Positions 7,044 to 30,037 are shown, numbered from the stretch's first letter. The stretch is 30,037 nt of DNA from an uncultured Planctomycetales bacterium (GCA_964565175.1 CAZMDZ010000001.1:1-30037); one strand, 5' to 3'. Notes: generated by a model from the letters alone, not told the origin. Program-made: numbers and translations.

Positions 7044-7044
7044 C

Positions 7045-8659: not shown

Positions 8660-8661
8660 GT

Positions 8662-9201: not shown

Positions 9202-11838
9202 CTATCGAGCGTAAGCGCGCCAAGCCTGGTCGAGCACGACTGGGTCCATGGCGCCGGGGAGAATGATGAACCGATAACGCAGTCGCAACGGTTCACCCTT
9301 GTTTAAATCATAGCGCTTGCCCGCTTGCGGGAAAGTGGGCTGAAACCACGGCAATTCGGGGTAAGTGACGACGTCGGCGGGGTGCTCGGGGTTGCTGGGG
9401 TGCTCAAGGATGGCCAGCGTGGTCAATTGCGTGCCGCCCTGCCAGACACCACTTGCCGCCGACCACGCAGGTTGGCGAGAGTTTGAAAGTTGCAAATCCT
9501 TGACCGGGGCCAAGCGCACGTTCAAGCCGCCGTACTTGTCCTGACCTCGGCGGGCGATGCTGACGCCATCCTCTAGCGCCTTGAAGCTGAGATCCAAGTC
9601 AACCGTCTTGCCGTACAAGCCGTCGCCGAGCAGCAACGTGACTTCCGCCGTTTCGCGGACGATGGGGGTTTTGTTCTCCCACATCCATTGATTGACCGCT
9701 TTGATGCCAACACGATCACCGCGCCGCACCGACATCGGTCTGCCGAGCGGCTTGGAAAATACCTGCTGCAGCGCGTGCAAATCCCCGATTTGTTCACCGT
9801 ACTTCACTTCGGGCCACGCCCAATAGATCCCGCGATGGTGCGGGTGATCGTGGCTCCAATCCAGGGTCAGGTCTTCGCCGTCTAAGCCGCTGAGCGGGTG
9901 GATGTACCCACTGCGCGGCACCGCGTACTTGTGATTCCCCGGAGCAACTTGATCCAAGTACCCGGTTGGCAGCGCCACTTGCTCACCGAGGTAAGTGAAC
10001 ACCGGCGTCGGGTAGAGATCGAAGCGATACGCGCCCCCTTCACTGCTGACGCCATGCACTCCGGCGTTGTAGAAGCTAGTCGCAGGCCGCATTTTGAAAG
10101 TCCAGGCATGCTGGCAAGGTAGATCATTGATGCCGATCGCAGAAGTGTCGACGGTCAGCATGCCATCATTCCACGTCCACGGCAGCTCGCGATCCAAGCC
10201 AAGCATGCGCACCGCACTCCCCTTACCGGGCTCAGGCGTGTGAAGCAGCAGTTGATCGCCCGGCCAATCCATGGTGATGGCGTAAAGGTTGCCATGGTTT
10301 CGGGTGTAAGCAACCGTTTGCCACTGCGAGCGGTAGCGCACCTTCAATCCATTTTCATTCCCTAGCTTGGTGGTAAAGAGCGAATCGCTTGGGATGACGT
10401 GCTTCAATCCATCTTCATGCGCCCAATGCAAACGAGCGACGGCTTGATGGGTGGTTTCTTTGAACTCGACGCGAATCGGCAGGCGCTCGCCTGCGGTCAT
10501 GTAGCGAATGCCTGGCTCTTCGCTGGTGGCAACGGGTTGGCCTTCGATCCACAACGTGGCGGAGTCGTCGGCTTCGAGCTCGAACAAGTAGGCGCCGTCG
10601 GCTGGGGAATCGAGAAAGCCAGTCCACTCGGCGGTGAAATGATCGGGCTCAATTCGATCGGCCGGTGAGTTGCGCACCCAATCAAAATCGATGTTGGCGT
10701 CGACGCGCTCCACATCCAAATGGATCCACTCTCCTAGACGCTTGGTGGGAGTGGCTCCATAAATCGCTTCGTTGTTGACCTCAATCCATGCACCAAGTTG
10801 GCGCAATCGTTCTTGCTGCAGCAGTGGAATTTGCCCATCCGCGCCCGGCCCGACGTTGAGCAGCATGCCGCCGCCGTGACTGACGGCGCGGGCGAAATAG
10901 TGAATCAATTGATCCGGTCGCAGGTAGGCGTCGAGTTTTTCATTGCGATTCAGGCCAAAACTCCGCCCCAGACCGCGGCACTCCGCCCATGGCCGATCGC
11001 CCGGGGGCGCTCCAGCTGAATACTCAGGGGTGCGGAATCCGACCTTGGATCCACCGCCCCAGCGATCGTTCACCGCAAGGTCATCGGGACAGCCAGATTC
11101 GGTGTAAAGCCAGTTCAAGAGTTCTGCACTTTTCCAAGTGCTGGCCGGGTGATCCCATTCGCCATCCGAAAACAGCACCGCCGGTTTGTAACGAGACATG
11201 ACGTCCTTGAATTGCGGAATCATGTGCTCGGCCACGTAACGATCGACGTCGTTCTTGGGTCGGTCGTTGGCCCAAGAGTATATCGGGTGATTCCACTCCG
11301 GCAGCGAGTAATACAAACCCATGCGCAAGCCGGCTGCGCGTACCGCGTTGGTCAAATCGCCAACCAAGTCACGTTTCGGCCCGACCTCCATCGAGTTCCA
11401 AGGGAAGCCGCGCGATTCGGACGCGTGACTGCTCGGCCACAAGGCAAAGCCGTCATGGTGCTTGGAAGTCAGCACGACATATTGCGCCCCAGATGCGCGA
11501 AAGAGCTCGGCCCATTCCGTCGGCTCGAACAACTCAGCCTTGAAATGCGGCGCCAAATCTTCATAGGTGAAGTCTTCACCGTAGACTCGCTTCAAATAAT
11601 CAATCCGCGGCTGATCGCCGGACTGCAAACCGCGCAAATACCACTCGGCGTACTGCTCCTTGCCACTCCACGACGGCACCGAGTACAAGCCCCAGTGAAT
11701 GAAAATGCCCAACTTGGCATCGCTGAACCATTGCGGGAACGGCCGGTCGGCCAGTCCCTCCCAGGTTGGAGTTTCTTGGGATGCTACTGGGTTTGCAAGC
11801 ACCAGAACGGCGAGTACGCTAGACACGGACCACTTCAT
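9202..11838 (-). CDS. GH29 alpha-L-fucosidase with PA14-type insertion and C-terminal DUF6807 (PF14100 'PmoA'-named) domain
   Basis: Sec signal, WFSDAKLGIFIHWGLYSVP, YVVLTSKHHDGFALW, LFSDGEW and LLNVGPGADGQIP (GH29). IDFDW..FTAEWTGFL..ADDSATLWI (PA14, ~10330-10730). YIHPL..DHPHHRGIYWAW..YGGLNVR (DUF6807, ~9202-10080). Confidence 0.88.
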   Translation of the reverse strand: MKWSVSSVLAVLVLANPVASQETPTWEGLADRPFPQWFSDAKLGIFIHWGLYSVPSWSGKEQYAEWYLRGLQSGDQPRIDYLKRVYGEDFTYEDLAPHFKAELFEPTEWAELFRASGAQYVVLTSKHHDGFALWPSSHASESRGFPWNSMEVGPKRDLVGDLTNAVRAAGLRMGLYYSLPEWNHPIYSWANDRPKNDVDRYVAEHMIPQFKDVMSRYKPAVLFSDGEWDHPASTWKSAELLNWLYTESGCPDDLAVNDRWGGGSKVGFRTPEYSAGAPPGDRPWAECRGLGRSFGLNRNEKLDAYLRPDQLIHYFARAVSHGGGMLLNVGPGADGQIPLLQQERLRQLGAWIEVNNEAIYGATPTKRLGEWIHLDVERVDANIDFDWVRNSPADRIEPDHFTAEWTGFLDSPADGAYLFELEADDSATLWIEGQPVATSEEPGIRYMTAGERLPIRVEFKETTHQAVARLHWAHEDGLKHVIPSDSLFTTKLGNENGLKVRYRSQWQTVAYTRNHGNLYAITMDWPGDQLLLHTPEPGKGSAVRMLGLDRELPWTWNDGMLTVDTSAIGINDLPCQHAWTFKMRPATSFYNAGVHGVSSEGGAYRFDLYPTPVFTYLGEQVALPTGYLDQVAPGNHKYAVPRSGYIHPLSGLDGEDLTLDWSHDHPHHRGIYWAWPEVKYGEQIGDLHALQQVFSKPLGRPMSVRRGDRVGIKAVNQWMWENKTPIVRETAEVTLLLGDGLYGKTVDLDLSFKALEDGVSIARRGQDKYGGLNVRLAPVKDLQLSNSRQPAWSAASGVWQGGTQLTTLAILEHPSNPEHPADVVTYPELPWFQPTFPQAGKRYDLNKGEPLRLRYRFIILPGAMDPVVLDQAWRAYAR

Positions 11839-11844
11839 TCTCGG

Positions 11845-12839
11845 ATGCTATCGCCGCCCCCACCGACCGACACGATTCCGCGTTGGCGACGTCGGCTTGC
11901 CAAACGACAAGTAGCCGACATCCTCATTTTCGTGTCATGGCTGAGCTTGGCGGTTTTTGGTTTACTGACCGAGGTGTCGATATGGGGTGCCACAGTCCTG
12001 CTTGTGCTTGGTTTAACAATCTTTTTGACGCTGCGGGCCAATGAGCACCAATGGAAGGAATTGAATGCGCGCGGAATGAATTTTCCTTCCCGCGTACTTT
12101 GCTCAACCGGCTGGCTTACTACTCACCCATGGCCTTCATGGTCAGCTATTACTTTTTTCATTCCATGGGAGTCAGCCCGCTGGCCTTTGCCACGCTGTTG
12201 ATTGCAGTCTTGATTCTGCGCACCTATCTCTACCCCATAATCCTCACCCCTGCGCTCACTCGCCATCCAGACAAGGAAACCCAACTTGCGGAGATTGCAG
12301 GCGACCTGATGCAGCGAGCGGAAACAATGCGCTGCCCGGTGATGGTGGCGGATCGCTTTTACGACGTCGATGACAAAGACGAAGCTGAAAACAACGAGCC
12401 CGACTTAAATGCGTTTGCCTGCGGTTTTCGCAAATCTCGCCGGGTGGTGATCTATGCAGACTTAATGGATCATTATTCAGGCCATGCCGTGCGTGGCGTG
12501 CTGGCCCACGAGCTTGCTCATATTCATCATCATCACACGGTGAAAGCGCTGATCCTGAATACACCGCCGTTTGCCCTCTTGCTATTTTTGCTGAGATCCG
12601 GGGATTCGCTAGAGCTCGTTTACTTCGCCATCGGAACACTAGTGTTGCTAGCCTTTATGCGCAAAGTCTCGCGCGTGCATGAATTCCAAGCAGATCGCAC
12701 CGCCGCTGATTGGGTTGGGCCGGAAGTGATGCATGAGTTGATCGACAACTTTGGCACCGAGCCCGACGTCGGCCGGGCAGATCGTTTGATGCGCACGCAT
12801 CCGCTTCATCAGCAGCGCAAGGACGCACTTTCCAATTGA
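11845..12839 (+). pseudogene. Membrane M48 (HtpX/Ste24-like) zinc metallopeptidase, split by a -1 frameshift at ~12089-12091
   Basis: The 12051-12839 ORF has GVLAHELAH and SRVHEFQADR. A two-TM N-terminus is encoded from ATG 11845 in another frame (tail of the 11149-12201 ORF). One extra C in the CCC at 12089-12091 would give ...MNFPSPRTLLNRL..., about 331 aa. Confidence 0.7.
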
Positions 12840-12893
12840 TCCTCCAAATTCATCGTGGCGTCGGAGGACCTGCTTATCCCTTGATCCTTCGAC

Positions 12894-14777
12894 TCACGGC
12901 ATCAGCGTCCATTTCCATGTCACCACCCGCAGCACGCCGTCGACGGTGCCAGAAACTTTGGCGGTCAGCTGGTCGTGCTCGCGGAAGTATTCGATGTGAG
13001 TGGGGAAGTCGTGATCCTCGTTGACGAAAACGGCACGGCGGGGTTCGAGCGTTTGTAGGACGAACTCGGCGGGCTCTTGGTTGGAAGGAAAGGCGCGGTA
13101 GACCACCAAGCCATCGCGCTCGACGATTTCCAAATGCTCCAAACTAAAACCGCCTTCGGCGTTGCAGTCGCGGTGGGTGCCGACCATGACGCCATTGCGC
13201 GGCGCGAACCAGCCTTCTTCTTGGACACTCTTTTTGTGTCTGGAACTCCAGTGACCAGCCAGCCAACGCAACTGATTGATTTTTGATCCCCCATTGACCG
13301 TTGGCATTTTGGCGCCGATTTCCTTTTGCCAGTCATGGAGTTTAGCCAGCAACTCGTTGCGCTTTTCCTTGTGTTGAGTTGCCAAATCAAATTGTTCGCT
13401 AGCGTCCACATCCAAACGGAATAGTTCAACCTTGCCGCTATCAAACCACTCAATCAACTTCCAATCGCCGTCGCGCACCGCCGCGCCGGGTTGGCCTCCT
13501 TGATTTCCGTAATGAGGGTAGTGCCAAAAAACCGGCCCGCGCTGGTACTCCTCATGCCCCAACAAAGGACCGACAAAGTTGACGCCATCCACATGCTGCG
13601 CCGGAGTGCTTTGGATTCCAACCAAACTCAAAATGGTTGGATAAAAATCGGTGCTGGTCACCACCGCACTGCAGACCGAAGGCTGCTTCACCGAGGGATC
13701 CACCGAGGTCATCCCTTCCGGCAAATGCACAATCAATGGCTCGCGGATTCCGCCTTCATACAACCAACCTTTACCCGCACGCAGCGGCAAGTTGCTGGTT
13801 GGACTGCCTTCCGAAGTGGATAAGCCGCCGTTGTCCGAGGTGAAAATCACAATGGTGTTTTTGTCCGCGCCGGTTTCGGCCAGCGCATCCATCACCGTAC
13901 CGACCGCCATGTCCATGGCTTCGACCATGCCGGCATAAACCGCGTGGTTCTGCACCATGCGCACCCGACGCTCCCCTTCTTTACCCCACGCCTCGGCCGG
14001 TCCGGCCTCGCGCTTTTTCAAATACTTCTGCTTCAAATCCTCACGCGCAATCAACGGCGTGTGCACCGAGTAGAACGACAAGAATGTAAAAAACGGTTGG
14101 CCTTGATTTGCGCGAATAAACGCCGCCGTTTCATTCGCCAAACGCTGCGGCAAATGCTCGCCGTCGGGGCCGTCTTGCAAACGCGGGTTGCCATACGGAG
14201 AGAAGTATTTTTTGCCGCCATAAGGACCGCCACGAGTGATGCCGCCTATGTTGACGTCAAAACCATGGTCTTCGGGCCAAAATCCTTCGGGGCCTAAGTG
14301 CCATTTGCCAGCGAAAAAAGTTGCGTAGCCATTGGCCTTCAACGCTTCGGCCAACGTCACTTCTTCATGCGCCATCCGATCGGTGTATTCCGCGGGCAGC
14401 AGCGCGGTTTTGCGCTTCCACTTCTCCGGTTGGTTGAATCGACCTTCGTTGATGTAGTCCGTAATGCCAGTCCGTGCTGGATACTTGCCGGTCATGATGC
14501 TCGACCGCGTTGGGCTGCACACCGGGCACGAAGCATAAGCATTGGTGAAGCGTGTCCCGCCATCGGCTAACCGCTGAATGTTGGGCGTGTCATAAAACGT
14601 ATTCGGATTGTTGGGCGACACATCCATATAGCCGAGGTCATCCACCAAAATGAAAACTACATTCGGCGGCGCCAACCCCTGCTCTTGAGCCAAAGAACTC
14701 GCTCCCACCAAGAAACATGCTGCGATTGCCGCAAAGGCCGTCGCCCAGCCCGAAGGTCTTTCCGCGCGATGGATCAT
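12894..14777 (-). CDS. Formylglycine-dependent (Cys-type) sulfatase fused to a C-terminal DUF6265-like domain
   Basis: Signal peptide, FILVDDLG, CSPTRSSIMTG and FAGKWHLG. The last ~130 aa (LRWLAGHW..EEGW..AVFVNEDHDFPTHIEY) resemble DUF6265. Confidence 0.88.
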   Translation of the reverse strand: MIHRAERPSGWATAFAAIAACFLVGASSLAQEQGLAPPNVVFILVDDLGYMDVSPNNPNTFYDTPNIQRLADGGTRFTNAYASCPVCSPTRSSIMTGKYPARTGITDYINEGRFNQPEKWKRKTALLPAEYTDRMAHEEVTLAEALKANGYATFFAGKWHLGPEGFWPEDHGFDVNIGGITRGGPYGGKKYFSPYGNPRLQDGPDGEHLPQRLANETAAFIRANQGQPFFTFLSFYSVHTPLIAREDLKQKYLKKREAGPAEAWGKEGERRVRMVQNHAVYAGMVEAMDMAVGTVMDALAETGADKNTIVIFTSDNGGLSTSEGSPTSNLPLRAGKGWLYEGGIREPLIVHLPEGMTSVDPSVKQPSVCSAVVTSTDFYPTILSLVGIQSTPAQHVDGVNFVGPLLGHEEYQRGPVFWHYPHYGNQGGQPGAAVRDGDWKLIEWFDSGKVELFRLDVDASEQFDLATQHKEKRNELLAKLHDWQKEIGAKMPTVNGGSKINQLRWLAGHWSSRHKKSVQEEGWFAPRNGVMVGTHRDCNAEGGFSLEHLEIVERDGLVVYRAFPSNQEPAEFVLQTLEPRRAVFVNEDHDFPTHIEYFREHDQLTAKVSGTVDGVLRVVTWKWTLMP

Positions 14778-16438
14778 TTCTCGCCCTCCGCCGAGTCGTC
14801 TTGGTATTGCGCCTGCAATTCGCCCAACTGTTGGGCCATCGAAACGGCAAGGTCGCGGTATTCAGGGTCTAAGTACAAATTGTTCAATTCATCCGGATCA
14901 TTCTTCAAATCGAACAACTCCCACTCACCCACCTGGTAATAACGAATTAGCTTGTAGCGGTCAGTGCGAATGCCGTAATGCCGTTGCACCTTGTGTACAT
15001 CGGGGAAGCCGTAGTAGTGGTAATAAATCGAATCGCGCCACGATTCCTTTGCCAACGACAACTCCAAAATCTCGGCATCGTCTAAGTTGAAGTCGCCGCT
15101 GTTTTGCAAGAGCGGCAGCAAGGACATGCCTTGAAAATCATCCGGGACCTCCGCTCCTGCTGCCTGCAAAAATGTCGGTGCATAATCCAAGTTTTGCACC
15201 AAGTTCTTATTCACTGTTCCCGGCGGCGTTTTCCCTGGCCATTTCACCACTAGCGGCATCTTCAACGACTCTTCATACATCCAACGCTTGTCGTACCAGC
15301 CATGATCACCCAGAAAAAACCCCTGGTCCGAAGAATAGACCACGATCGTATTTTCAGCCAAACCCGCGTCTTCTAAATACTTCACAATTTTGCCGACGCT
15401 ATCGTCGACGGCTTTTGAAGTGCGCAAATAGTTCTTCATGTAGCGCTGATACTTCCAACGCACCAAATCCTTGCCGGTCAGATTCGCGTCGTAAAAAGCT
15501 TTGTTCTTCTCGGCATAACCCGCGCGCCATTTTTCCAGCTGCTCAGGCGTCATCTTCTTCAAATTGCGAAACCCAGATTTGTCGGTGGCAATTCCCGAAA
15601 TGGTGTCTTCCCGCGGATCCAAAAATAAATCATAAGCCGAATTCATGTGCCGATCGATTTCCATCTCTTGCCCAGCTGCCGGGCTGGCGTTGTCGGCATA
15701 ATCATCAAACAAAGTATCTGGCACAGGCAACTCGACGTCGTCCCACAAATTCAAATAACGCAGCGGCGGCATCCAGTTGCGATGCGGGCCCTTGTGTTGC
15801 GCCATCAGCAAAAACGGCTTGCCATCTTTACGCTGCTGCTCCATCCAACCAATCGCCATGTCGGTGATCAAGTCAGTGCAATAACCCTGCACCCGACGAC
15901 GCCCTTCCGGCGAAATAAAATCCGGGTTGTAGTAGTCGCCCTGGCCCGGCAGGATGTCCCAGTAATCAAACCCCTGCGGATCGCTATGCAAATGCCATTT
16001 GCCAATCATCGCCGTTTGATAGCCCGCTTTCTGCAACAACTTCGGAAAGGTAACCTGGTCCCCATCAAATCGATTGCCGTTGGCCATAAATCCATTTTTA
16101 TGACTGTGCTTGCCGCTCAAAATCACCGCCCGGCTAGGCCCGCAAATCGAATTGGTGCAGAAGCTGTTACGGAACAACATGCCTTGCGACGCAAGTTGAT
16201 CAATGTTCGGTGTCGGATTGAGTTCGGCGTATCGGGTTCCATAAGCGCCGATCGCATGCGGCGCGTGATCGTCGCTAAAAATGAAAACGATGTTGGGTTG
16301 CTTTCTGGCGCTGGCGTCGGCGGCTTGAGCCACGGCCGGCGCGGCGGCGGTGTGTGCGGCGGCCGGAGCGACGGCGGCTTGGGCGACGACCGGTGCGGCG
16401 AGCAACAGCGATGGAATTTGGAAGTGGAGCAGCTTCAT
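14774..16438 (-). CDS. Cys-type sulfatase, N-acetylglucosamine-6-sulfatase-like
   Basis: FIFSDDH, CGPSRAVILSG, MIGKWHL, YQRYMKNYLR, SSDQGFFLGDHGWYDKRWMYEES. Ala-rich spacer after the signal peptide. The subfamily call is by resemblance. Confidence 0.9.
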   Translation of the reverse strand: MKLLHFQIPSLLLAAPVVAQAAVAPAAAHTAAAPAVAQAADASARKQPNIVFIFSDDHAPHAIGAYGTRYAELNPTPNIDQLASQGMLFRNSFCTNSICGPSRAVILSGKHSHKNGFMANGNRFDGDQVTFPKLLQKAGYQTAMIGKWHLHSDPQGFDYWDILPGQGDYYNPDFISPEGRRRVQGYCTDLITDMAIGWMEQQRKDGKPFLLMAQHKGPHRNWMPPLRYLNLWDDVELPVPDTLFDDYADNASPAAGQEMEIDRHMNSAYDLFLDPREDTISGIATDKSGFRNLKKMTPEQLEKWRAGYAEKNKAFYDANLTGKDLVRWKYQRYMKNYLRTSKAVDDSVGKIVKYLEDAGLAENTIVVYSSDQGFFLGDHGWYDKRWMYEESLKMPLVVKWPGKTPPGTVNKNLVQNLDYAPTFLQAAGAEVPDDFQGMSLLPLLQNSGDFNLDDAEILELSLAKESWRDSIYYHYYGFPDVHKVQRHYGIRTDRYKLIRYYQVGEWELFDLKNDPDELNNLYLDPEYRDLAVSMAQQLGELQAQYQDDSAEGEK

Positions 16439-16480
16439 CTTCGGTAGGGTTCGCCCAAGTTAGCAGGTATGCTCGGAGAG

Positions 16481-18631
16481 ATGCGCTTTGCCCCCCTCCT
16501 TTTGTTGGCGGCTCTATTTTCCGCCGCGCTATCCACTCCCACCCGCGCGCAGGATGCCAAGCCAAATATCGTTTTCATCATGGCGGACCAAATGCGCGCC
16601 GACTTCCTCGGGTGCGCGGGGAATGAAGCGGTGCACAGCCCCAACCTGGATCGTTTCGCCAGCGAAGGTGCGCATTTCCGCCGGGCGTATGCCTCCACCC
16701 CTTCTTGCACCCCAGCACGCGCCGCCATTTTGACCGGCCAGTCGCCCTGGAGCCACGGCATGCTCGGCTATTCCCAAGTGGCCGAGCGCTACCCGATTGA
16801 GCTGCCCCGGCTGATGAACGAGGCGGGCTACTACACCTACGCCATCGGCAAGCAACATTTCCACCCCCAGCGAAACACCCACGGCTATCAGGGAATGGAA
16901 TTAGACGAATGCGGACGGCGTCGGGATCCGGGGTTTCTTTCGGATTACCACCGCTGGTTCGATCAAGTGGCCGGCCGCCAAGATCCTGACGCAACCGGCT
17001 TGGGCTGGAACGATTACCGCGCCAAGGCTTATCGCTGGCAAGAGGAACTGCATCCGACTGCCTGGACCGGTGAACGCGCTACCGAGTTCTTGCATGAATA
17101 CGATCGCGATCAACCGTTTTTCCTGAAAGTCAGTTTCGCACGGCCTCACAGCCCTTATGACCCGCCCTCCAATTTTTTGGCGAAAGTCGACCCGAAGACG
17201 GTGCCAGCAGCGGCGGTGGGCGATTGGTCCGACGAACAATTTGGTCATTTCCATCAGCCCGAAAAGTTCTCCGCCCCACGCAACAACTTGGGCGCCGAAG
17301 TCAATCAAGCGGCACGCCGAGCCTATGCAGCGAACATTGCTTTTATCGATGAGCAAATTGGCAACATACTTCAGGTTTTGGAAGCACGAGGCATGCTGAA
17401 GAACACTTTGCTGATTTTCACTTCCGATCACGGCGACATGCTCGGCGACCATCACCTTTGGCGCAAAACTTATGCCTACGAAGGCTCGGCAGGAGTTCCC
17501 ATGTTGATGTACTGGGGCGACGACGTCCTGCGTGCGCCGCGCGGGCAAGTGCGCCATGAATTGGTTGAGCTTCGCGATTTACTTCCCACTTTCCTCGACG
17601 CGGCGGGCGCACCGGTGCCGGACGCAGTCGATGGTTTGTCGATGCTGCATCCAGTCAAAGGCCTGCGCACGGCGTGGCGCCGATGGTTGGATTTGGAGCA
17701 CTCGACCTGTTATTGGCCGGGGAATAACTGGACCGCGCTGACCGATTCGCAATGGAAGTACATCTTTCATGCCTTTGACGGCAGCGAGCAATTGTTCGAC
17801 CTGAAGGCAGATCCGCAGGAGTTAGTCGACTTGTCCGCGAGTCAAGATCATCAGCAAGTTCTCAAGCAATGGCGCGGACGCATGGCCGAGCACTTGGCGC
17901 CGCGCGGTGATGCATGGGTGGCCGATGGCGCCCCAGCGATACGCAAGAAGGGTCAAGCCCGAGGGGCGAATTATCCCGCCTCGGAAGAGAAGAAGAGCAA
18001 GCAAGAACCAGCGATGGCATCGCCTCAATCGGTCAGCGGAATTTATCCACACTTGGCATTCTTCAATGACGAAAACGAATGCGGAACCGGGGCACTGGTG
18101 CCGTGGGCAGATCGATTATGGGCAATCACCTATGCACCGCACGCGCCGCGGGGGTCGTCGGACAAGTTGTATGAGATCACGCCCGAGTTGGACTTGATCG
18201 TGCGCCCGGAATCGATCGGCGGCACCCCAGCCAATCGCATGATTCACCAGGAGTCGCAGCAGTTGTTTCTTGGACCTTACGTGATTGATAAGGATCGCAA
18301 CGTACGCACCATTCCCTATGAAAAAATGTTTGGCCGCCACACGGGCAACGCGCGCCACCTCACTGACCCGGCCAATAAAATTTACTACGCAACCATGGAA
18401 GAGGGTTTGTACGAGGTCGATGTCCATACCCTCGACGTCAACGTGTTGTACGCAGACAACCACGGCGACAAGGCGATGGTCCACTCCGCCGCTCCGCAAT
18501 CTGAGTTGCCCGGTTACCACGGCAAGGGTCTGTACTCTGGCCAGGGACGGGTGGTTTATGCCAACAATGGCGAAGTTGGAAAAACCGTGTTTACCGATCC
18601 TTCGACGCCGTCGGGATCGTTGGCGGAATAG
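16481..18631 (+). CDS. Cys-type sulfatase fused in frame to the N-terminal part of a large uncharacterised domain; ends at a premature TAG
   Basis: GGAGAG RBS before ATG 16481, signal peptide, FIMADQMR, CTPARAAILTG, TSDHGDMLGDH. The sulfatase domain ends at ~17980. After a linker a different domain starts at SVSGIYPHLAFFN (~18030). Confidence 0.85.
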   Translation: MRFAPLLLLAALFSAALSTPTRAQDAKPNIVFIMADQMRADFLGCAGNEAVHSPNLDRFASEGAHFRRAYASTPSCTPARAAILTGQSPWSHGMLGYSQVAERYPIELPRLMNEAGYYTYAIGKQHFHPQRNTHGYQGMELDECGRRRDPGFLSDYHRWFDQVAGRQDPDATGLGWNDYRAKAYRWQEELHPTAWTGERATEFLHEYDRDQPFFLKVSFARPHSPYDPPSNFLAKVDPKTVPAAAVGDWSDEQFGHFHQPEKFSAPRNNLGAEVNQAARRAYAANIAFIDEQIGNILQVLEARGMLKNTLLIFTSDHGDMLGDHHLWRKTYAYEGSAGVPMLMYWGDDVLRAPRGQVRHELVELRDLLPTFLDAAGAPVPDAVDGLSMLHPVKGLRTAWRRWLDLEHSTCYWPGNNWTALTDSQWKYIFHAFDGSEQLFDLKADPQELVDLSASQDHQQVLKQWRGRMAEHLAPRGDAWVADGAPAIRKKGQARGANYPASEEKKSKQEPAMASPQSVSGIYPHLAFFNDENECGTGALVPWADRLWAITYAPHAPRGSSDKLYEITPELDLIVRPESIGGTPANRMIHQESQQLFLGPYVIDKDRNVRTIPYEKMFGRHTGNARHLTDPANKIYYATMEEGLYEVDVHTLDVNVLYADNHGDKAMVHSAAPQSELPGYHGKGLYSGQGRVVYANNGEVGKTVFTDPSTPSGSLAE

Positions 18632-19950
18632 GTAGATGGTGAATGGAATGTGGTGCTGCGCAATCAATTTACCGAGGTGACTGGTCCAGCTGGAATCTAC
18701 GGTAGTGAAGATCCGGCCAACGACCCGATTTGGAGTATCGGTTGGGATCACAAGTCTTTGATTTTGATGCTGCTCGACAAAGGCGAGTGGCACCGCTTCC
18801 GCCTACCAAAAGCTAGCCATAGTTACGACGGCGCCCACGGCTGGAACACCGAATGGCCGCGAATTCGTGACATTGGGGAAGAGGATTTGCTGATGACCAT
18901 GCACGGCATGATGTGGCGTTTCCCGCGCACATTTTCTGCGGCCAACACAGCTGGCATTACACCGCGATCGACTTACCTGAAAGTGATCGGAGATTTTTGT
19001 CGCTGGCAGAATCGGGTGGTGTTCGGCTGCGACGACACCGCACGCAGTGAGTTTCAGAATAAGCGCAAAGCCAAAGGCGAAATTGCCGCCCCGCGATCGC
19101 AATCAAATTTATGGTTTGTCGAACCAGAGCAGTTGGACCACCTGGGTCCGGTGTTTGCGCGCGGCGCGCTGTGGTTGAACGAAGAGGTTCAAGCTGGGCA
19201 AGTTTCCGACCCAATGTTGGTCCATGGTTTTGATTCGCAATCCATGCACTTGGTCACCGACAAGCCGAGCAAAATCTACATAGAAGCGGACCTAACAGGG
19301 CGCGGCGACTGGCGCGTGGTCGACATCTTGAAGGCCGACGGCTATCAATGGCACAACCTTGCCCTGAGCCCAACCGTGCAGTGGGTTCGCTTGCGCAGTA
19401 AAGAAAAGTTGGACCGGGCAACCGCATGGTTCCAGCTGCAAGAACGGCGAAGCGACCTGTTCCCCATCCTTTCTTTTTACGACAAACCAGCGCCTCCCCC
19501 CGAAGCGTTCCTGGGCATGCCATTGGTTTTGGATCGGGAAGCTGTCGGCGGGGTCATTCGTGCGCGAGGCGAAAAAGAAGGCACGCTGCATTTTGCGGCG
19601 CGAGTCGCCTTTGCCGCGAAGTTGCCACCGAGCGCGATTTATTTCACTTCGGCGGAATTTTTTATGAACTACCCGCCGAAAATGCCGGCGGCTTTTCCAA
19701 GATCAAGCCGATCAGCGCCCACCACTTGCAGATCAGTGATTTCTGTAGCTACCGAGGCATGCTCGTCATGTCGGGCGTCAGCTTGGAGCGGGCAAGCGAA
19801 GCCGATAGCTCGCACATCATTCTCAGCGACGACGGCCAAGCCGCGCTCTGGGTGGGCGCAGTCGATGACTTATGGGAGCTTGGGAAACCACGTGGCGAAA
19901 TGGGGCTCTTCCCCTTTGGGAGAGTGAAAGCAAATGTGCCATCCGAGCCT
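18632..19950 (+). pseudogene. Continuation of the uncharacterised domain: in frame after the TAG, frameshifted at ~19600, truncated at ~19950
   Basis: Reads SLAE*VDGEWNVVLRNQFTEV in one frame. Protein-like sequence switches at ~19598-19605 from the 18650 frame (..TLHFAA) to the 19426 frame (SRLCREVATERDLF..GAVDDLWELGKPRG). Confidence 0.75.
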
Positions 19951-22082: not shown

Positions 22083-22119
22083 GTAGTTCCGTCCGTCTCG
22101 GAGGTGGAGGTTGGTGGGA

Positions 22120-22175
22120 GTCCGGGAGACCAGGTGTCCGGGGGTCCGAGCGTTCGAGCGTTCGAGCGTTCCACT
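22120..22175. repeat. Degenerate 8-bp tandem repeat, 7 units
   Basis: gtccggga/gaccaggt/gtccgggg/gtccgagc/gttcgagc/gttcgagc/gttccact read directly from the sequence. Confidence 0.75.
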
Positions 22176-22215
22176 AAGTGGCGGAAGTAGCCGCGGGCAC
22201 TCTTCCCAAAAAGCG

Positions 22216-23622
22216 CTATTCCTGCTTCTGGAAGACAGCCAATGCCTCGTTGTGAAGGGCGCGCAAAGTCTTCATCTGCTCAGGCTCGCGGCCGCGAATG
22301 TTCGTTTGCTCGCCGACGTCTTCCGCCAAGTTCACCAGGAAAAACTTATCCCGTTCATCGGCATCGGCCAATCGACTGCGGTCGGTGTCGCGCGGATTGA
22401 CGATCAATTTAAACTCGCCGCTGCGCACAGCCCATTGATCACTCACCAGCCAATGCAAAACTTCATGTGGCGTGGTGGCCGTGGCATCGTGAATCAACGG
22501 CACCAAACTTTCACCGTCCAAGTCCATGCCAGGATGCAGCGGAATGTTGGCCAACTCGGCGAGCGTCGGCAGCCAATCGGTGGCGTGGGCAATTTGGTCG
22601 CGGAGTTGGCCGCCCTCAATCCGTCCCGGCCAAGTGATGGTGGCAGGCACGCGGATTCCACCCTCAAACAAACTAAACTTCGACCCGCGGAAAGGCCCGG
22701 CGCTGCCACCGCCATAAAAGGCGCGCTGCTCGGTGGAGTGCCCATGATCCGACTGGAAAACAACGATGGTATTTTCACGCTGACCCAAACGGTCGACCTC
22801 GGCCAAAATCTGACCAAGCTGTTCATCCATCGTCGCCAACAAAGCCAAATAATCACGCCGACGCTCCTCCAATTCGGCATAAGCCTCGGTGGCAAAATGC
22901 GCGCGCCACTTTGCTTTGCCCTGTAGCGGATAGTGCGGAGTATTGAACGGCAGGTACAAGAAAAATGGCGTGCGCCCGGGTGGCGGCCGACTATCGACGG
23001 ACGCCGCCATCAATTGGTTATGCGCTTGATTGTCCTGCAAGAAGTCGATGGCTTCCCGCACCACCATGTCGCCGAAGTGGCTGCCGTCCTCAAAATACTC
23101 TTCATCCCCGCGCCACAGATCGTGACGGTTTGGACCATTCCAATAAAAGAAGTGCGACCAGTTATCGATGCAGCCTTGGCGATGACCAAAATAGCGATCG
23201 AAACCTTGCTGCAACGGACTCTGCGGCAGCGTGGTTCCTAAATGCCACTTCCCGATCAGCGCAGTTTGATAACCGGCGGCTTGGAAAACTTCGGCGATGG
23301 TGGTTTCATCGAGCGGCAAACCAGGACCGCCAGGCGAGACATTGCCCGGCACTCCGCAGCGCCATGGATAACGACCGGTCAAAAGCGCGGCGCGTGAAGG
23401 CGAGCAAATCGAAGAGGCGGCATAAAACTGAGTGAAGCGGATGCCGTCGGCGGCGAGTTGGTCGAGCGTGGGCGTGACCACATTCGGCGTGCCAGCCGCG
23501 CCGATGTCCATGGTGCCCTGGTCGTCGCTCAAAACAACAATGACATTTGGTTGTTGCCCCACGGCATCTGCGGGGAATGCCAGCAACCAAGCCGCGATTG
23601 AGATTTGCAGGAAAATCTTCAC
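22216..23622 (-). CDS. Cys-type arylsulfatase A-like sulfatase
   Basis: Signal peptide, VVLSDDQG, CSPSRAALLTG, LIGKWHLG, QSDHG, GSKFSLFEGGIRVP. Confidence 0.92.
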   Translation of the reverse strand: MKIFLQISIAAWLLAFPADAVGQQPNVIVVLSDDQGTMDIGAAGTPNVVTPTLDQLAADGIRFTQFYAASSICSPSRAALLTGRYPWRCGVPGNVSPGGPGLPLDETTIAEVFQAAGYQTALIGKWHLGTTLPQSPLQQGFDRYFGHRQGCIDNWSHFFYWNGPNRHDLWRGDEEYFEDGSHFGDMVVREAIDFLQDNQAHNQLMAASVDSRPPPGRTPFFLYLPFNTPHYPLQGKAKWRAHFATEAYAELEERRRDYLALLATMDEQLGQILAEVDRLGQRENTIVVFQSDHGHSTEQRAFYGGGSAGPFRGSKFSLFEGGIRVPATITWPGRIEGGQLRDQIAHATDWLPTLAELANIPLHPGMDLDGESLVPLIHDATATTPHEVLHWLVSDQWAVRSGEFKLIVNPRDTDRSRLADADERDKFFLVNLAEDVGEQTNIRGREPEQMKTLRALHNEALAVFQKQE

Positions 23623-23657
23623 GGCTACGATTCTAATTCATTTCCTATGATGAACCC

Positions 23658-26600
23658 ATGCCGGTGATTTCCTCCATCATTCTGTCACTCGCCATTTGCT
23701 CCCCCATGGCTCCGCAAGACCGAGCCCAGGCCCCAGACTTCGATCGCGAAGTGCGGCCGATCTTGGCGGACAAGTGCTTCGCCTGCCACGGTCCCGACAA
23801 AGATGGACGCAAAGGCAAGCTGCGGCTGGACAAACGCGATCGCATCTTGGGCATTTCCGGTGGCGACGCGGTTGTCGTGCCCGGCGACCGGGAAGACAGC
23901 GAGTTGTGGTACCGCATCACCACCGACTACAGCGACGACTTGATGCCGCCCACCGATCACGGCAAGTCGCTGACCGCCGCTGAGATTGAGATTCTTGGCA
24001 AGTGGATCGACGACGGCGCACCATGGGCGGAGCACTGGGCATTTGTTTCACCAGTGAAGCCGAAACTGCCGGAAGTCGCCAACCGCGAATGGATCCGCGA
24101 TGAGGTGGATACTTTTGTCTTGGCCAACCTCGAGAAGAATGGATTGCAGCCCAATCACCACGCAGAAAAGGGCAAATGGCTACGTCGGGCGAGTTTGGCG
24201 CTGACCGGCTTGCCGCCGACCGAGATGGAGGTGCGCGCATTCCTCGGCGACTGGTCGGCGGATGCTTACGACAAGGTGGTCGATCGGTTGTTTGCCTCGC
24301 CGGCTTACGGAGAACACATGGCGTCGGCATGGCTGGATGGTGCTCGCTACGCCGACACCAATGGCTATCAAAATGATTTTCACCGGGCGCAGTGGCCGTG
24401 GCGCGACTGGGTGGTGCAGGCTTACAACAACAACTTGCCCTTTGATCAATTCGCCACCTGGCAGTTGGCCGGGGACTTATTGCCTAACGCGAGCAATGAG
24501 CAAATTTTGGCGACCGGCTTTGGCCGCAATCATCGCACCGTAACGGAGGCGGGATCGCTGGATGAAGAGTGGCGCGTCGAGAACGTGGTCGACCGAGTGG
24601 AGACGACGGCGACGGTGTTCATGGGGTTGACGATGGGTTGCGCGCGCTGTCACGATCATCGCTACGATCCGATTTCGCAAAAGGAGTTTTATTCGTTCTA
24701 TGGGTTTTTTAATTCACAGGATGAAAAAGGTGTTTATCAAGAAACACGCGGCAACGCAGGCCCGATGGTCAGGGTGCCGTCGGCATCGGACAAAGCGCGG
24801 TTGGCAGAATTGCGCCGGGCGAAAAAAGCGGCGCGAATGAGAAATGAGGAAGCAATTGCCAAGCGCGGAGAAGCCTTTGAAAATTGGCAGGATATGTTAG
24901 AAAAGCAATCGCTTTCGAATAACGACTCATGGACCGACATACTGCGGTTTAATCAAAACGAAGACCCGCGACCCAATTTCGGCGGCGAAGTCTTTTCACC
25001 GGAGCACGATCAATCGTTCACCATTTCGGCTTGGGTCCGACCGCGTTCCGACGGCACCGTGATCGGCAAAATGGATGCGGAGGCTGCGTATCGGGGAGTG
25101 GATTTGACCTTGATCGAAAACCGCAAGATTTCGGTTCACCTCATTCATGACTGGCCGAACAATGCCATCAAAGTTGTTTCGAATGAGGCTCTGGACGATG
25201 GAGTATGGAATCACGTCGGCGCGAGTTATGACGGCAGTGGCAAAGCGTCGGGGGTGCAGTTGTTTTTGAATGGCCGGGCGATTGATGCGCGAGTGGCAGC
25301 CGACAACTTGGACGGCAGCATTCTGACGGACACACCGCTGCGCTTGGGCCAGCGTTCGACTCGCGAGCATCTTCGCGGCGACCTTCACACGGCGCGCTTT
25401 GAAATGGCAACCTCGGATGAAGCCAAAGTACGAATGCACGTCAACGCCGACGCTCATGGTTTGTGGAGACGGTTGGGTTCGAAAGTAATCTCTGCGGACA
25501 GCAACAACGATGGGGGTTCCAAGGCTTCGGCTAGCGAACTCAGTGGTCAAGACCTAAGCGAAGTTTTTGCTTCATGCTTTCATCAAGAAAGTCGTCAAGC
25601 GCGACTGGAAATGCAACGGCAGAACAAAGCTATGGCGGAGTTTGAAAAGAACATTCCGTCCGTGATGGTGATGAAAGATCGCGCCGAGCCGCGGCCGACT
25701 TACTTGCTGAATCGCGGCCTGTACGATCAACCGGTTGAAGAGGAAGAAATTCAAACCGGAGTTCCAGATGTGCTGCCAGGGTGGCAGCAGTCTTACCCGC
25801 GAAACCGCTTGGGCCTGGCCCAATGGATGGTTTCCGCGGAAAATCCACTGACCTCGCGAGTGGCAGTGAACCGCATCTGGCAACAGTTGTTTGGCACAGG
25901 CTTAGTCAAGACTTCTGAGAACTTCGGCATTCAAGGATCGCGGCCGAGTCATCCGCAACTGTTGGATTGGCTGGCGTTGGAATTTGTTGAATCCGGCTGG
26001 GATGTACAAGCTTTGCAAAGACGCTTAGTGCTGTCGGCCACTTTCCGTCAAAGTTCGTCGGCGACGGCCGAAAGCTATGCCAGTGACCCGGGCAACCTTA
26101 AACTTGCCCGTGGACCTCGTTATCGATTGAGCGCCGAACAGGTACGTGATCAAGCGTTGATGGCGAGTGGATTGTTAGTGCAGAAGTTAGGCGGTCCGCC
26201 CACGCGTCCCCATCAGCCGCCTGGTTTATGGACCGAATTGGCGGGCGGTGCTGGCCAAGGCCCTTATGTGCAAGATACCGACGATGGCTTGTGGCGGCGC
26301 AGCCTGTACACCCACCGCAAACGCTCGGTCCCCCACCCGACGCTTACCACTTTCGATGCACCCAGTTTTGAGGTGTGCTTGGTTCGACGTCCACGCACCA
26401 ATACACCACTGCAGGCGTTGGCAACCTTGAATGATCCTACTTATGTGGAGGCGGCACGGCGCCTTGGTGAACGCATGATGGATTTGGATCGCTCCAACGA
26501 ACAACGCTTGGCGTGGGCATTTTCGCTTTTGACCTGCCGCCCGCCTACGGCGAAAGAGCAGACCATTTTGAAGGATGCGCTCTATGCAGAATTGCGCTAC

Positions 26601-26681
26601 ACCCCCAAAGACCCTGCTGCCGCGTGGACTGCAGTTGCGGCAATCCTTCTTAACTTGGACGAGGTGTTGAACTGTGACTAA
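23658..26681 (+). CDS. Planctomycete cytochrome c / DUF1549 / LamG-like / PSD1 (DUF1553) protein
   Basis: [21 protein letters not shown] (CxxCH, 23775-23789), [24 protein letters not shown] (24639-24653), LamG-like [38 protein letters not shown]. Confidence 0.92.
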
Positions 26682-28089
26682 ATTCGACGAAAAACTGAAG
26701 CGCGCCGGAATGCACCTCAACCGCCGCAGCTTTTTGCGCAACAGCATGGGTTTGCTGGGCGGTGCCGCACTAACCGATCTTGGCCTGGCCGCAACTCGTC
26801 CGCGCATCGGCAAAGCCAAGCGAATTATTTACCTATTCCAATCCGGCGCGCCGTCGCAATATGAAACCCTGGATTGGAAACCCAAAATCGCCGAACTGCG
26901 CGGACAAGATTTACCCGCATCGGTGCGCATGGGCCAACGCTTGACGACGATGACTTCGGGGCAAGACAAGTTTCCAATGGCCAACTCGCTGTTCGGCTTT
27001 CAGCAAAACAAAGAGTGTGGCACTTGGATCAGCGACATGTTGCCGCACACCCGCGCCATTGCCGACAAGATTTGCGTGATCAATTCGATGCACACCGACG
27101 CGATCAATCACGATCCGGCGGTGACCTTTTTCCAAACCGGATCGCAGCTTGCAGGCCGACCGAGTTTTGGCGCGTGGTTGTCGTATGGCTTGGGTTCGAT
27201 GAACCAGGACTTGCCGACTTTCATGGTGATGATTTCGCGCACGGTGTCGGCGCAACCCTTGTACGACCGACTGTGGGGACCAGGGTTCTTGCCCTCGCAA
27301 CACCAGGGTGTGAAGCTGCGCAGCGCGGCCGACCCGGTGCTTTATTTGCAGAATCCGGGCGGCGTCACCCGGGCGATGCGGCGCGAGCAGTTGGACAAAT
27401 TGAACGAGCTCAATCGCGAGCGCAATCAGGTCAGCGGCGACCCGGAAACGTTGGCGCGGATCGAGCAGTACGAGCTGGCCTTCCGCATGCAAACGGCGGT
27501 GCCTGAGCTGACCGACATCCGCGACGAGCCTGGTCACGTGCTGGAAATGTACGGTCCGAAGGTTCATGAACCCGGAAGCTATGCGCGTAACTGCTTACTA
27601 GCAAGACGGATGGCCGAGCGCGACGTGCGCTTTGTCCAGCTCTATCACATGGGTTGGGACCACCACGACAACCTGCCGTCGAAAATGCGCGCGACTTGTG
27701 GCGACACCGATCAACCCACCGCGGCGCTGATCAAAGACCTCGAACAGCGCGGCTTGCTCGACGACACGCTGGTCGTTTGGGGCGGTGAATTCGGCCGCAC
27801 CGTTTACTCGCAAGGGCAGCTGACTGCCGAAAATTACGGCCGCGATCACCACCCACGTTGTTTCAGTATGTGGATGGCTGGCGGCGGCATCAAAGGTGGG
27901 ATCAGCTATGGCAAAACCGATGACTTCGCTTACAACATCGTTGAAAACCCGGTCGACGTTCACGATCTACATGCAACTTTGCTGCATCAGCTCGGCATCG
28001 ATCACCAACGCCTGACCTACCCCTTCCAAGGCCGCGACTTCCGTCTCACCGACGTCGGCGGCAAAGTTCTGACGCCGCTGCTAGCTTGA
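26674..28089 (+). CDS. DUF1501 domain protein with Tat signal
   Basis: NRRSFLR leader, [58 protein letters not shown] start overlaps the upstream gene. Confidence 0.92.
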
Positions 28090-28096
28090 TAGAGAA

Positions 28097-30037
28097 ATGA
28101 TGATGCTGTCCCCCCTACTTTTGACCGCGCTGGCGATGGGGATGGCATCGCCGCAGTCCGATGGACAATGGCTAAGCGGTTATCAAACCGAAGTCAAAGG
28201 CGAGCAAATTGACTATGAGTCGGCGCTGCCGGATGTGCGCTCGGCATTGCTGGTGAGGTCGCTGGAAGCGGAAAGATCGATCGCTTGGCAGACACCGGTA
28301 ATGCCCGAAGTTGTGCCTGCCGAAGGCGTCGCGCTGACCTGGTTGTTCGGCATGGATGCCAATCCGGAACAGCATGAATTCAAGTTGTTGCTGAACGGGA
28401 AAGAGTTGTTGCGCTTCCACAATCCGGCGACTGCAACAACCGAATCGTGAACGACCGAGGGCATCGCATCTCTCAAATTCCGCCCCACCCACATCGACCG
28501 CCATCAGGATGTATTCGGTTTTGCGGTGCTGCAGCTGCCAGCGGAGTTGATCACGGCTGGCAAGGCGATGACCTTGGAAGTCGTCGGCGAATCGGCGGGG
28601 AGTTGGATTTGGTACATGACCTTCCGCCACTCGCCGCAAGAGTCGATTCGCATGACCGAGCACAACGCTCTGCGGCGGACCGAAGATATGGGTGCTCCCG
28701 GTGCGTTCCAGGAAATGATGATGGAAGTGGTGCACTTGGGCGAACCGATGCGGGTGCGAGTGGAGGCAAGTTGGGGCTTTGTTTCTGCACACGATTTGAA
28801 ACTTGGGGCCAATCGCATTTGGATTCATCGCGGCTACGAAGTCGCGGAACCGGTCAAACCGTGGGTCATCCACCTTGTCCAACACAGTCACACCGACCTC
28901 GGTTACACCCGGCCGCAAACCGAAATCCTCGCTGACCATCTGCGCTACATCGACTTCGCGCTGGATTATTGTGATCAAACCGATCACTTCCCCGACGACG
29001 CCAAGTTCCGCTGGACATGTGAAGCAGCGTGGCCTGTGCAGGAATATTTGCGCTACCGCCCCGAAGCGCAAATTGAGCGCCTGCGCCAACGCATAGCCGA
29101 AGGTCGCGTGGAACTGACCGCCATGTTCGCCAACCTCAGTGAACTGCTCGACGACCGCGCTTGTTCCGCCAGCCTCGCCCCCATCGCCGAAATGCGCAAG
29201 CACGGCCTGCCGGTGGAAAGCGCGATGCAGAATGACGTCAACGGGATCCCGTGGATCTACGCCGACCTACTTTCCGAAATGGGCGTGCGCTATTTGACCA
29301 TGGGCGAGCACGGCCATCGCGCGCTGATTCCCTTTGATGTGCCGACTGCGTTCTGGTGGGAGTCGCCGAGCGGTTCGCGGATGTTGGCTTGGAGGCCAGA
29401 TCATTACAACACCGGCAATTTCTGGGGTGTGCATTCCGGCAGCGTCGAAGCCGTCGAGCCTGCGGTGTTCCGCTACCTTGGTGAAATCGTTGAAAACGGT
29501 TACACCATGGATCACATTTCGGTTCAGTACGGCGGTGTGTTTTTGGATAACGCCCCGCCTGGAATCAAAGCTAATGAGTTGATCCGCGATTGGAATGAAA
29601 AGTACATCTGGCCGAAGATGCGTTCGTCGCTGGGTACAGAATTGCCAAAGTGGGTTGAGCGAAATCATGGCGACGCACTTCAAACTTTCCGCGCGGCATG
29701 GCCGGATTGGTGGTCAGATGGAATTGCATCGGCGCCTCGCGAAGTTGCGGCAGTGCGCAAAACGCAGAAGCAATTAGCCGCGACCGAATCGATGTTGGCG
29801 ATGGCGCAGTTGGCCGGACACAAGATCCCTCAACAGTTACTGGATCGCGTCGCCCGCACTTGGGAGCAGCTCGTGATTTACGGCGAGCACACTTATGGCG
29901 CCGCTGAATCGGTGACGGATCCAGGTGCCGAAAATACCAAGGTGCAGTGGGCACAGAAATCGGCGTTTGCTTGGGACGCGGTGAAGGAAGCTGCCATTTT
30001 GCAAGAGGCTGCCTTCGGGTTATTGCAAGACGCGTGG
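28097..30037 (+). pseudogene. GH38-like (alpha-mannosidase family) glycoside hydrolase with an in-frame TGA at 28448-28450; runs off window end
   Basis: Signal peptide from ATG 28097. After ..TES* the same frame stays open to 30037 and encodes LVQHSHTDLGY, FRWTCEAAW, GRVELTA, AMQNDVNG, FWWESPSGSRMLAW and EHTYGA. This long frame is missing from the ORF track. Confidence 0.82.

Follow-up and report, generated by a model that had tools for sequence, protein, structure and literature searches.

Signs of gene decay in a candidate sulfated-glycan cluster of a marine planctomycete that carries two unclassified protein families

Several gene clusters resembling polysaccharide utilisation loci (PULs) have been described in bacteria of the Planctomycetota-Verrucomicrobiota-Chlamydiota (PVC) group. 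The fucoidan PULs of planctomycetes 892/913 are marked by endo-fucanases of glycoside hydrolase (GH) families GH168 and GH107 together with sulfatases of subfamilies S1_17, S1_22 and S1_25 (PMC11685898), and in the sulfatase-PSCyt loci of freshwater Verrucomicrobia the pairing of PSCyt/PSD1 with DUF1501 proteins, and the closeness of these pairs to sulfatases, have already been reported (PMC5615132). Here we examine a locus of kindred type at positions 9202-30037 of a 30,037-nt stretch of DNA (the window) from an uncultured Planctomycetales bacterium (GCA_964565175.1 CAZMDZ010000001.1:1-30037). With the clusters of Planctomycetota and Verrucomicrobiota it shares an exported GH29 enzyme, several S1 sulfatases, a PSCyt/PSD1 gene and a DUF1501 gene beside sulfatases, small transcription units on both strands and the lack of SusC/SusD. 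It differs from the fucoidan PULs of 892/913 in having neither an endo-fucanase nor a fucan-type sulfatase, its sulfatases being a set of N-acetylglucosamine (GlcNAc) and galactose or N-acetylgalactosamine (Gal/GalNAc) types, and from both kinds of cluster in a fusion of a sulfatase to a beta-propeller protein, an unclassified (beta/alpha)8 family and three pseudogenes. The locus is of a type ordinary for PVC bacteria; its interest lies in two large protein families and in decay that is underway.

On balance we favour, with some reserve, the reading that this is a lineage-specific PUL-like cluster without SusC/SusD in a marine planctomycete, whose exported enzymes would jointly dismantle a sulfated, fucosylated glycan containing GlcNAc and Gal/GalNAc, and that it is decaying in the population sampled here.

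The gene map was defined by a listing of open reading frames (ORFs) and Pfam scans of the whole window, and export signals were judged from the ORF translations. The genes named in a previous sequence-only reading of the locus (a GH29 gene, a GH38-like gene, four sulfatases, a haem protein/DUF1501 pair and two large unknown proteins) are all present, and every gene has a Pfam match except the two unknowns, here called F and G. As had been stated, the intact genes are export-directed, with signal peptides on their products, and the scans agree that the 30 kb encode no SusC/SusD, TonB-dependent receptor or ABC transporter and no formylglycine (FGly)-generating enzyme or anaerobic sulfatase-maturating enzyme. 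A missing SusC/SusD pair is expected for Planctomycetota, and the FGly maturase is usually encoded elsewhere in the genome. One point has to be amended: neither unknown has a sequence match in Pfam, NCBIfam or PDB, but F does not stand as a gene by itself: it makes up the C-terminal two-thirds of the sulfatase E gene, and relatives encode the two parts as one protein.

Fucosidase, sulfatases and the predicted substrate

Gene A (9202-11838, minus strand; 878 residues, intact) encodes a secreted alpha-L-fucosidase with additional PA14, Fucosidase_C and DUF6807 domains. Its catalytic domain is covered end to end by PF01120 (Alpha_L_fucos, E=4e-108; 12-345 of the 345 profile positions), and the closest PDB entries are human FUCA1 (7PLS, 290 bits) and TmFuc of Thermotoga (1HL8, 241 bits), so that both the complete domain and the similarity to characterised enzymes place it in GH29. 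By this comparison A is a predicted exo-fucosidase of the GH29-A, FUCA1/TmFuc-like kind. Relatives have the same architecture (882 residues).

The sulfatases C, D, E and H all match PF00884 (E 1e-52 to 1e-63), and the FGly motif is of the Cys type in each: CSPTR in C, CGPSR in D, CTPAR in E and CSPSR in H. Subfamilies were assigned through the nearest solved structure, with the labels of the PDB entries taken from the literature (PMC11760155; bioRxiv 10.1101/2021.07.23.453482). The closest point of comparison is the host-glycan sulfatases of Bacteroides thetaiotaomicron, BT1918 (S1_46) for 3-sulfated GlcNAc (3S-GlcNAc), BT4656, BT3177 and BT1628 (S1_11) for 6S-GlcNAc, and BT3796 and BT3057 (S1_16) for 4S-Gal/GalNAc.

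D (14774-16438, minus strand; intact; SGSH_C E=2e-60) matched 9S03 (551 bits) and, over residues 35-550, 5G2V (519 bits) and 7P24 (515 bits). Its closest characterised relatives, aligned from end to end, are S1_11 enzymes, and it looks like a sulfatase of the 6S-GlcNAc type; the four CxPxR sulfatases had indeed been described as different in type and one of them as GlcNAc-6-sulfatase-like. E, which occupies the first part of the E-F gene (16469-19965, plus strand), matched 7OZ8 over its full length with 551 bits. Elimination within the PDB list of Luis et al., together with matching motifs, indicates that 7OZ8 is the S1_46 enzyme BT1918. In BT1918 five residues bind GlcNAc and its N-acetyl group (bioRxiv 10.1101/2021.07.23.453482), and all five are kept in E: Y94 (GMLGY), R143, N174 (GWND), R327 (LWRK) and Y408 (HSTCY). 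E thus looks like an S1_46-like sulfatase of the 3S-GlcNAc type. For C (12894-14777, minus strand; intact, with a C-terminal DUF6265 domain) the nearest structures were 6UST (413 bits) and 9FO1 (374 bits), both S1_16 (PMC11760155), with 7OZA at 212 bits, which makes a convincing case for an S1_16-like assignment. The nearest structures to H (22216-23622, minus strand; intact, with G downstream on that strand) were the S1_19 entries 6PRM (224 bits) and 9HH3 (205 bits), with ARSA at 192 bits, and we call it S1_19-like in a weak sense. For all their likeness to the B. thetaiotaomicron enzymes (about 515-520 bits for D against 5G2V and 7P24), the sulfatases of the window use Cys as the FGly precursor where those use Ser, E carries a C-terminal extension of ~800 residues that BT1918 is without, and the host is a marine planctomycete.

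Assigned in this way, the four types would be mutually consistent, all pointing to sulfated GlcNAc or Gal/GalNAc; the candidate substrates are glycoconjugates that resemble mucin, keratan, glycosaminoglycans (GAGs) or N-glycans, or a counterpart of these in algae or invertebrates. 6S-GlcNAc is found in keratan sulfate and mucins, and 3-O-sulfo-GlcNAc linked to fucose in the aggregation-factor glycans of sponges. The substrate had been proposed to be a sulfated fuco- or manno-glycan or a glycoprotein. A sulfated, fucosylated chain of the glycoprotein, mucin or GAG kind is reasonable in view of the sulfatase types and the GH29-A enzyme, but for a sulfated mannan nothing that was tested gives support beyond the very divergent GH38-like gene, and the fucoidan-like option is disfavoured.

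If the locus served fucoidan or another sulfated fucan, sulfated fucose chains would be the target of the GH29 enzyme and the sulfatases, with F and G as novel endo-fucanases. The presence of GH29, the co-occurrence or fusion of G and F with GH29 and the abundance and induction of S1_16 sulfatases in planctomycete fucoidan PULs (PMC11685898) all fit such a role. The window, however, holds no GH107, GH168, GH141 or GH95 domain by Pfam, no S1_17, S1_22 or S1_25 sulfatase was seen, and no fucan sulfatase stands among the close PDB relatives of C, D, E or H. Two of the sulfatases appear to be of GlcNAc-specific types, E with its N-acetyl-binding residues retained; the GH29 enzyme is FUCA1-like and of the exo kind; and the predicted fold of G resembles alpha-Gal, alpha-GalNAc and alpha-Glc enzymes. 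We therefore regard a fucan substrate as improbable and proceed with a glycan containing sulfated GlcNAc and Gal/GalNAc.

Families G and F

G is a pseudogene in the window (19953-22139, minus strand; mechanical ORF 19749-22082). Neither phmmer nor profile searches gave a match in Pfam, NCBIfam or PDB, and a literature search found no published family that fits it. The family is large: a word-indexed search returned over 3,193 homologues, members were present in no fewer than 573 species representatives, and when 1.84 billion representatives were searched with a profile, E<=1e-3 gave 2,485 clusters (50% identity) and E<=1e-30 gave 841. Its members occur in Planctomycetota, Verrucomicrobiota, many Bacteroidota, KSB1, Acidobacteriota and others, including the cultured Bacteroidota Maribellus, Negadavirga, Larkinella and Parapedobacter.

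In the AlphaFold model of G (predicted local distance difference test, pLDDT, 91.5), a (beta/alpha)8 barrel, into which a beta subdomain is inserted, follows an N-terminal beta-sandwich and precedes C-terminal beta-sandwiches. The top PDB matches in Foldseek were the GH36 alpha-galactosidase 8K1A (1.4e-15), the GH101 enzymes EngBF (2ZXQ) and SpGH101 (3ECQ), the GH36 GalN-ase of Flavonifractor (9AYU) and the GH31 entries 5I0D and 1WE5; E values ranged from 1e-15 to 1e-12 with probability 1.00, at 9-10% identity and TM-scores of ~0.4. The fold is thus that of clan GH-D/GH101-like enzymes, while by sequence G belongs to no existing GH family represented in Pfam, NCBIfam or PDB. With GH36, GH101 and GH31 it shares the predicted succession of N-terminal beta-sandwich, barrel and C-terminal beta-sandwiches as well as acidic residues after the barrel strands, where D479 and E482 ('SFDGLEG') and D516 ('INDAS') are invariant in the family; accessory modules of those enzymes (CBM32-like, NPCBM_assoc, GH101_dom-5) are also found on distant G members. 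It differs from them in the low identity, the missing sequence or profile match and the modest TM-score. GH139, a family of 2-O-methyl-fucosidases, was also considered for G. It has an (alpha/alpha)6 toroid (PMC12282258) and was excluded on fold, since a beta/alpha barrel is predicted for G.

The domain partners and neighbours of G are largely glycan-active. G is fused to GH29 in some homologues (P0059, P0085, P0087, P0088, P0098 and P0114) and to a sulfatase/phosphodiesterase-like domain in P0025, and distant members carry F5/8-type-C (CBM32-like), LamG, CBM_4_9, NPCBM_assoc, GH101_dom-5, Big and FIVAR modules. Of 80 species loci, 11 have GH29, 21 a sulfatase and 10-12 SusC/SusD within 10 kb on either side of G. 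A PUL of Bacteroidota (L010, 304-22430) contains two G paralogues, 36% identical to P0002, a close relative of the window's G, in the order SusC, SusD, first G paralogue, GH172, second G paralogue, GH29, Gfo/Idh/MocA oxidoreductase, double 3-keto-disaccharide hydrolase, unassigned protein of 804 residues and GH35. Fold, fusions to carbohydrate-binding modules (CBMs) and to GH29, and PUL context bear out the suggestion of a candidate new glycosidase family: G very probably belongs to a glycoside hydrolase family that is absent from Pfam, NCBIfam and PDB.

F (~17980-19965, plus strand) likewise had no match in Pfam, NCBIfam or PDB by phmmer or profile. It has more than 7,400 homologues of ~800 residues, ~60% identical across phyla (PVC, Omnitrophota, Latescibacterota) and without annotation. 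The model (pLDDT 91) shows a beta-propeller and two related beta-sandwich domains, and an internal repeat is also visible in the tblastn comparison. The fusion of F with an S1_46-like sulfatase is limited to the planctomycete clade of the window (P0241-P0245). Other S1_46-like sulfatases carry GH43, GH172 or an AXE1-type esterase instead, which suggests that the usual partner of such a fused sulfatase is a glycan-active catalytic module. In the same set of proteins (P0246-P0253, P0255, P0260, P0261 and P0266), long homologues are found in the eukaryotic algae Prymnesium and Aureococcus as well.

Among 80 metagenomic loci with F, a sulfatase lies nearby in 14 and GH29 in 8. In an independent lineage (L157, L161, L163, L170 and L171) F, GH29 and an S1_16-like sulfatase fused to GH43 stand in a tight group on one strand. 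The unit (8980-16650 in L157), in which a GH43/32-like gene precedes F, belongs to a cluster of GH2 and GH43-like genes, with two GH2 genes, a GDSL esterase, a flavin (FAD) oxidoreductase, an SSF transporter and a beta-helix protein on its flanks. A link of F to fucosidase and sulfatase action, and its role as a glycan-active partner, are thus plausible. The proposal that the unknown domains are new CAZymes (carbohydrate-active enzymes) gains from this operon as far as F is concerned, but the fold search returned only generic propellers (the BT4663 sensor, phage tail proteins and GH43/GH32 enzymes, 1e-7 to 1e-6). Contexts of another kind were seen as well: in L008 (1-22367, Verrucomicrobiaceae) F stands among repeated pairs of an extracytoplasmic function (ECF) sigma factor and a FecR-LamG anti-sigma protein, a sulfotransferase and a PSCyt/PSD1-DUF1501 pair, and ECF/FecR neighbours recur in L113, L150 and L165.

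That G and F are both catalytic modules, of two undescribed glycan-active families, is a tentative proposal to which we give rather less than even chances. If it is right, G would be a family of retaining alpha-glycosidases, kin at clan level to GH36, GH101 and GH31, acting on fucosylated and often sulfated glycans, and F would be a beta-propeller enzyme for the residue that desulfation of the S1_46 or S1_16 type uncovers, which would explain both the sulfatase fusion and the operon of F, GH29 and sulfatase. Sulfated glycans are a big, slowly turned-over pool of marine carbon, and PVC bacteria are specialist degraders of them. The locus ties two very abundant uncharacterised families to fucosidases and defined sulfatase types and suggests substrates for them, namely fucosylated glycans sulfated as 3S- or 6S-GlcNAc and on Gal(NAc), and alpha-glycosides. 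Both families would be worthwhile to characterise, through intact orthologues and not the copies in the window.

Conservation and decay of the cluster

Close relatives of the locus were found through homologues of G (P0002, 87% identical; P0003, 84%) on contigs L002-L007. The same gene order is present in four related lineages of planctomycete metagenome-assembled genomes (MAGs), L002-4, L005-7, L015 and L016, in which G is 78-87% identical: GH38-like gene, DUF1501, PSCyt/PSD1, sulfatase H, G, sulfatase-F fusion, D, C, a variable spacer and GH29. Because the order recurs in all four, the genes are clustered beyond chance at this shallow depth, and the description of a conserved, export-directed cluster holds among related Planctomycetota. 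The intact orthologues have 1,333-1,349 residues (sulfatase-F fusion), 770-773 residues with a signal peptide (G) and 1,159-1,167 residues (GH38-like).

In the window, three of these genes (E-F, G and the GH38-like gene K) are disrupted; the lesions, independent and diverse in kind, number five or six and were located by tblastn of intact orthologues on the window and by local alignments. The E-F gene, compared with its intact orthologue of 1,349 residues, consists of the S1_46-like sulfatase up to ~17980 and the F-family region from there to 19965. Its mechanical ORFs, E at 16469-18631 (with a tail of ~220 residues that has no Pfam match) and F at 18650-19927, share a frame and are parted only by a TAG at 18629-18631, where relatives have the Trp of 'LAEWVDG'. 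Further downstream, orthologue residues 1074-1154 (~80 residues) are deleted, with a frameshift, at ~19594-19603, and the last ~72 residues are missing at ~19965. G has lost its signal peptide and its first ~30-50 residues, homology restarting at 'DGRNYLP', together with its last ~19 residues. At ~19953-19965 the 3' end of E-F meets that of G, the signature of one deletion spanning two convergent gene ends. K has a TGA at 28448-28450 in place of the Trp of 'TEAWSVS' in relatives, and an in-frame deletion of ~23 residues just upstream of nt ~28850. Genes A, I and J and the three stand-alone sulfatases C, D and H are intact. The segment 22083-22215, which separates the stop of H from the truncated start of G, is a remnant not alignable to relatives, in which the short direct repeat GAACGCTC occurs three times.

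We read E-F, G and K as pseudogenes here, and the nonsense mutations, frameshift and deletions in them as a real and ongoing decay; these lesions are new. Recoding of TGA or TAG as Trp is ruled out, because adjacent intact genes use both as genuine stops (TGA in C, D and J, TAG in A and H). The disruptions could also be artefacts of sequencing or assembly in a low-coverage MAG, the locus being intact in the cell. The four marine-metagenome runs that hold the window sequence (X1-X4) do so at just 3-5x depth, and position 18630 reads G (TGG, intact) in X1 and X2 and A (TAG) in X3 and X4. Against an artefact speak the number and variety of lesions in three genes, the true stops of adjacent genes and the neighbouring genes, which show no truncation and share 79-92% identity with their orthologues (I 79% and J 92% against those of L002). 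In addition, single-run contigs from several metagenomes cross the junctions at ~19600 and ~19960 without differences, the TGA of K is present unchanged in an X1 contig, and no other form of the deletion junctions was found in the runs whose contigs cover them. We consider an artefact very unlikely. The split at 18630 indicates that the nonsense allele of E-F is polymorphic in the population, and in one contig of X4 two bases (TG) are inserted after 18620, so that at least two inactivating alleles may be segregating at 18620-18631. Taken as decay, the locus would be a natural case of the piecemeal loss of a degradation cluster in a wild population, and a caution that counts of CAZymes and sulfatases in MAGs may include non-functional genes.

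Several observations weigh against the reading of a decaying cluster that acts jointly on one sulfated, fucosylated glycan. In addition to the low depth, the intact codon in two runs and the generic fold matches of F, the contexts of F are mixed and often contain no CAZyme. The subfamily calls rest on the nearest PDB relatives, that of H being weak. The locus was not found in the metatranscriptomes of the same study. The full set of genes is kept solely where G is at least 78% identical; among loci with G at 62-69% identity, L014 and L018 retain a sulfatase beside G, with a GH38-like gene ~4 kb off, and L013, L017 and L033 keep none of the cluster. Sulfatases are also so abundant in PVC genomes that a certain amount of adjacency should arise by chance. 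The expected co-conservation was accordingly found in part: the order is kept in four related lineages but dissolves into modules beyond ~78% identity of G. We conclude that co-conservation is shallow for the cluster as a whole and that modular pairs recur.

These data raise the alternative that the locus is no functional unit but an accretion of independent sulfatases and glycosidases, of a sort often met in PVC genomes with many sulfatases, with an order kept among close relatives solely by recent common descent. The loss of synteny is what such an accretion predicts, and the six small transcription units on both strands, the variable spacer between C and A and the want of a regulator or transporter agree with it. 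It does not account well for the independent recurrence, in distant lineages, of the pairs sulfatase-G (L014) and G-GH29 (fusions and L010) and of the groups F-GH29-S1_16 (L157 and its relatives) and PSCyt-DUF1501-GH38-like, nor for sulfatase specificities that are mutually coherent. We judge mere accretion to be unlikely and retain the joint action of the encoded enzymes on one glycan as the preferred reading.

Predicted order of action and the remaining genes

If the enzymes act jointly, degradation might proceed as follows. The GH29-A enzyme, with its PA14 binding module, would take off terminal fucose, after which the divergently encoded S1_11-like (6-O) and S1_46-like (3-O) sulfatases would desulfate GlcNAc and the S1_16-like and S1_19-like sulfatases would act on Gal/GalNAc sulfate. 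G, as a retaining-type (beta/alpha)8 enzyme, could then cut an alpha-linked hexose or hexosamine, and the F propeller, tethered to the S1_46-like sulfatase, could bind or cleave the residue which that sulfatase exposes. The GH38-like enzyme, presumably co-transcribed with the PSCyt/PSD1 and DUF1501 genes, may remove a further, possibly mannose-type, residue.

Gene I (23658-26681, plus strand; 1007 residues, intact) encodes PSCyt1 (a CxxCH haem c domain), PSCyt2 (DUF1549), Laminin_G_3 and PSD1 (DUF1553), and is directly followed by J (26674-28089, plus strand; DUF1501, Pfam E=8e-161), which has a twin-arginine translocation (Tat) leader (NRRSFL); this is the PSCyt1-PSCyt2-PSD1/DUF1501 pair known from PVC bacteria. 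A literature search found no function for DUF1501 or DUF1553. I and J overlap by 8 nt and J ends 7 nt before K, an arrangement kept in relatives, which suggests that I, J and K are probably one transcript.

K (28097-30037, plus strand) extends beyond the end of the window. Glyco_hydro_38N scored 88 bits against a cutoff of 25, Alpha-mann_mid fell below its cutoff and the C-terminal domain lies beyond the window. With GH38 alpha-mannosidases K shares Glyco_hydro_38N and the HxHxD motif, as 'HSHTD', and the relative in L014 also has Glyco_hydro_38C; it differs from them in an N-terminal extension of ~290 residues, the sub-threshold middle domain and the lack of any PDB GH38 match by sequence at E<=0.01.

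The 4-nt overlap of D and C indicates that these two form an operon. The divergent pairs D/E (gap 16439-16468) and H/I (gap 23623-23657) are separated by just 30 and 35 bp, and by 30 and 52 bp in relatives; with such tiny spacing either the promoters would fall within adjoining coding sequence or the start codons have been placed wrongly.

Gene B (12051-12839, plus strand) is M48-type metallopeptidase-like, with a HELAH motif (Peptidase_M48, E=3e-22). It occupies the variable spacer between C and GH29 and is probably outside the glycan system. The same spacer holds AAA_14/DUF4143 in L002 (20130-21401) and adh_short, AraC and M48 genes in L005 (20047-22313).

Upstream of A lie two minus-strand features assigned by Pfam that are not part of the cluster, a Gfo/Idh/MocA oxidoreductase gene (169-1470) and an operon for an Mrp/Mnh-type cation/proton antiporter (1475-9129). 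The latter comprises three Proton_antipo_M subunits, an Oxidored_q2 subunit, a fusion of MnhB, MbhD and MbhE, and MNHE. It contains a 300-bp gap at 3278-3580, and the first ~165 residues of its mechanical ORF 7045-8529 look non-coding.

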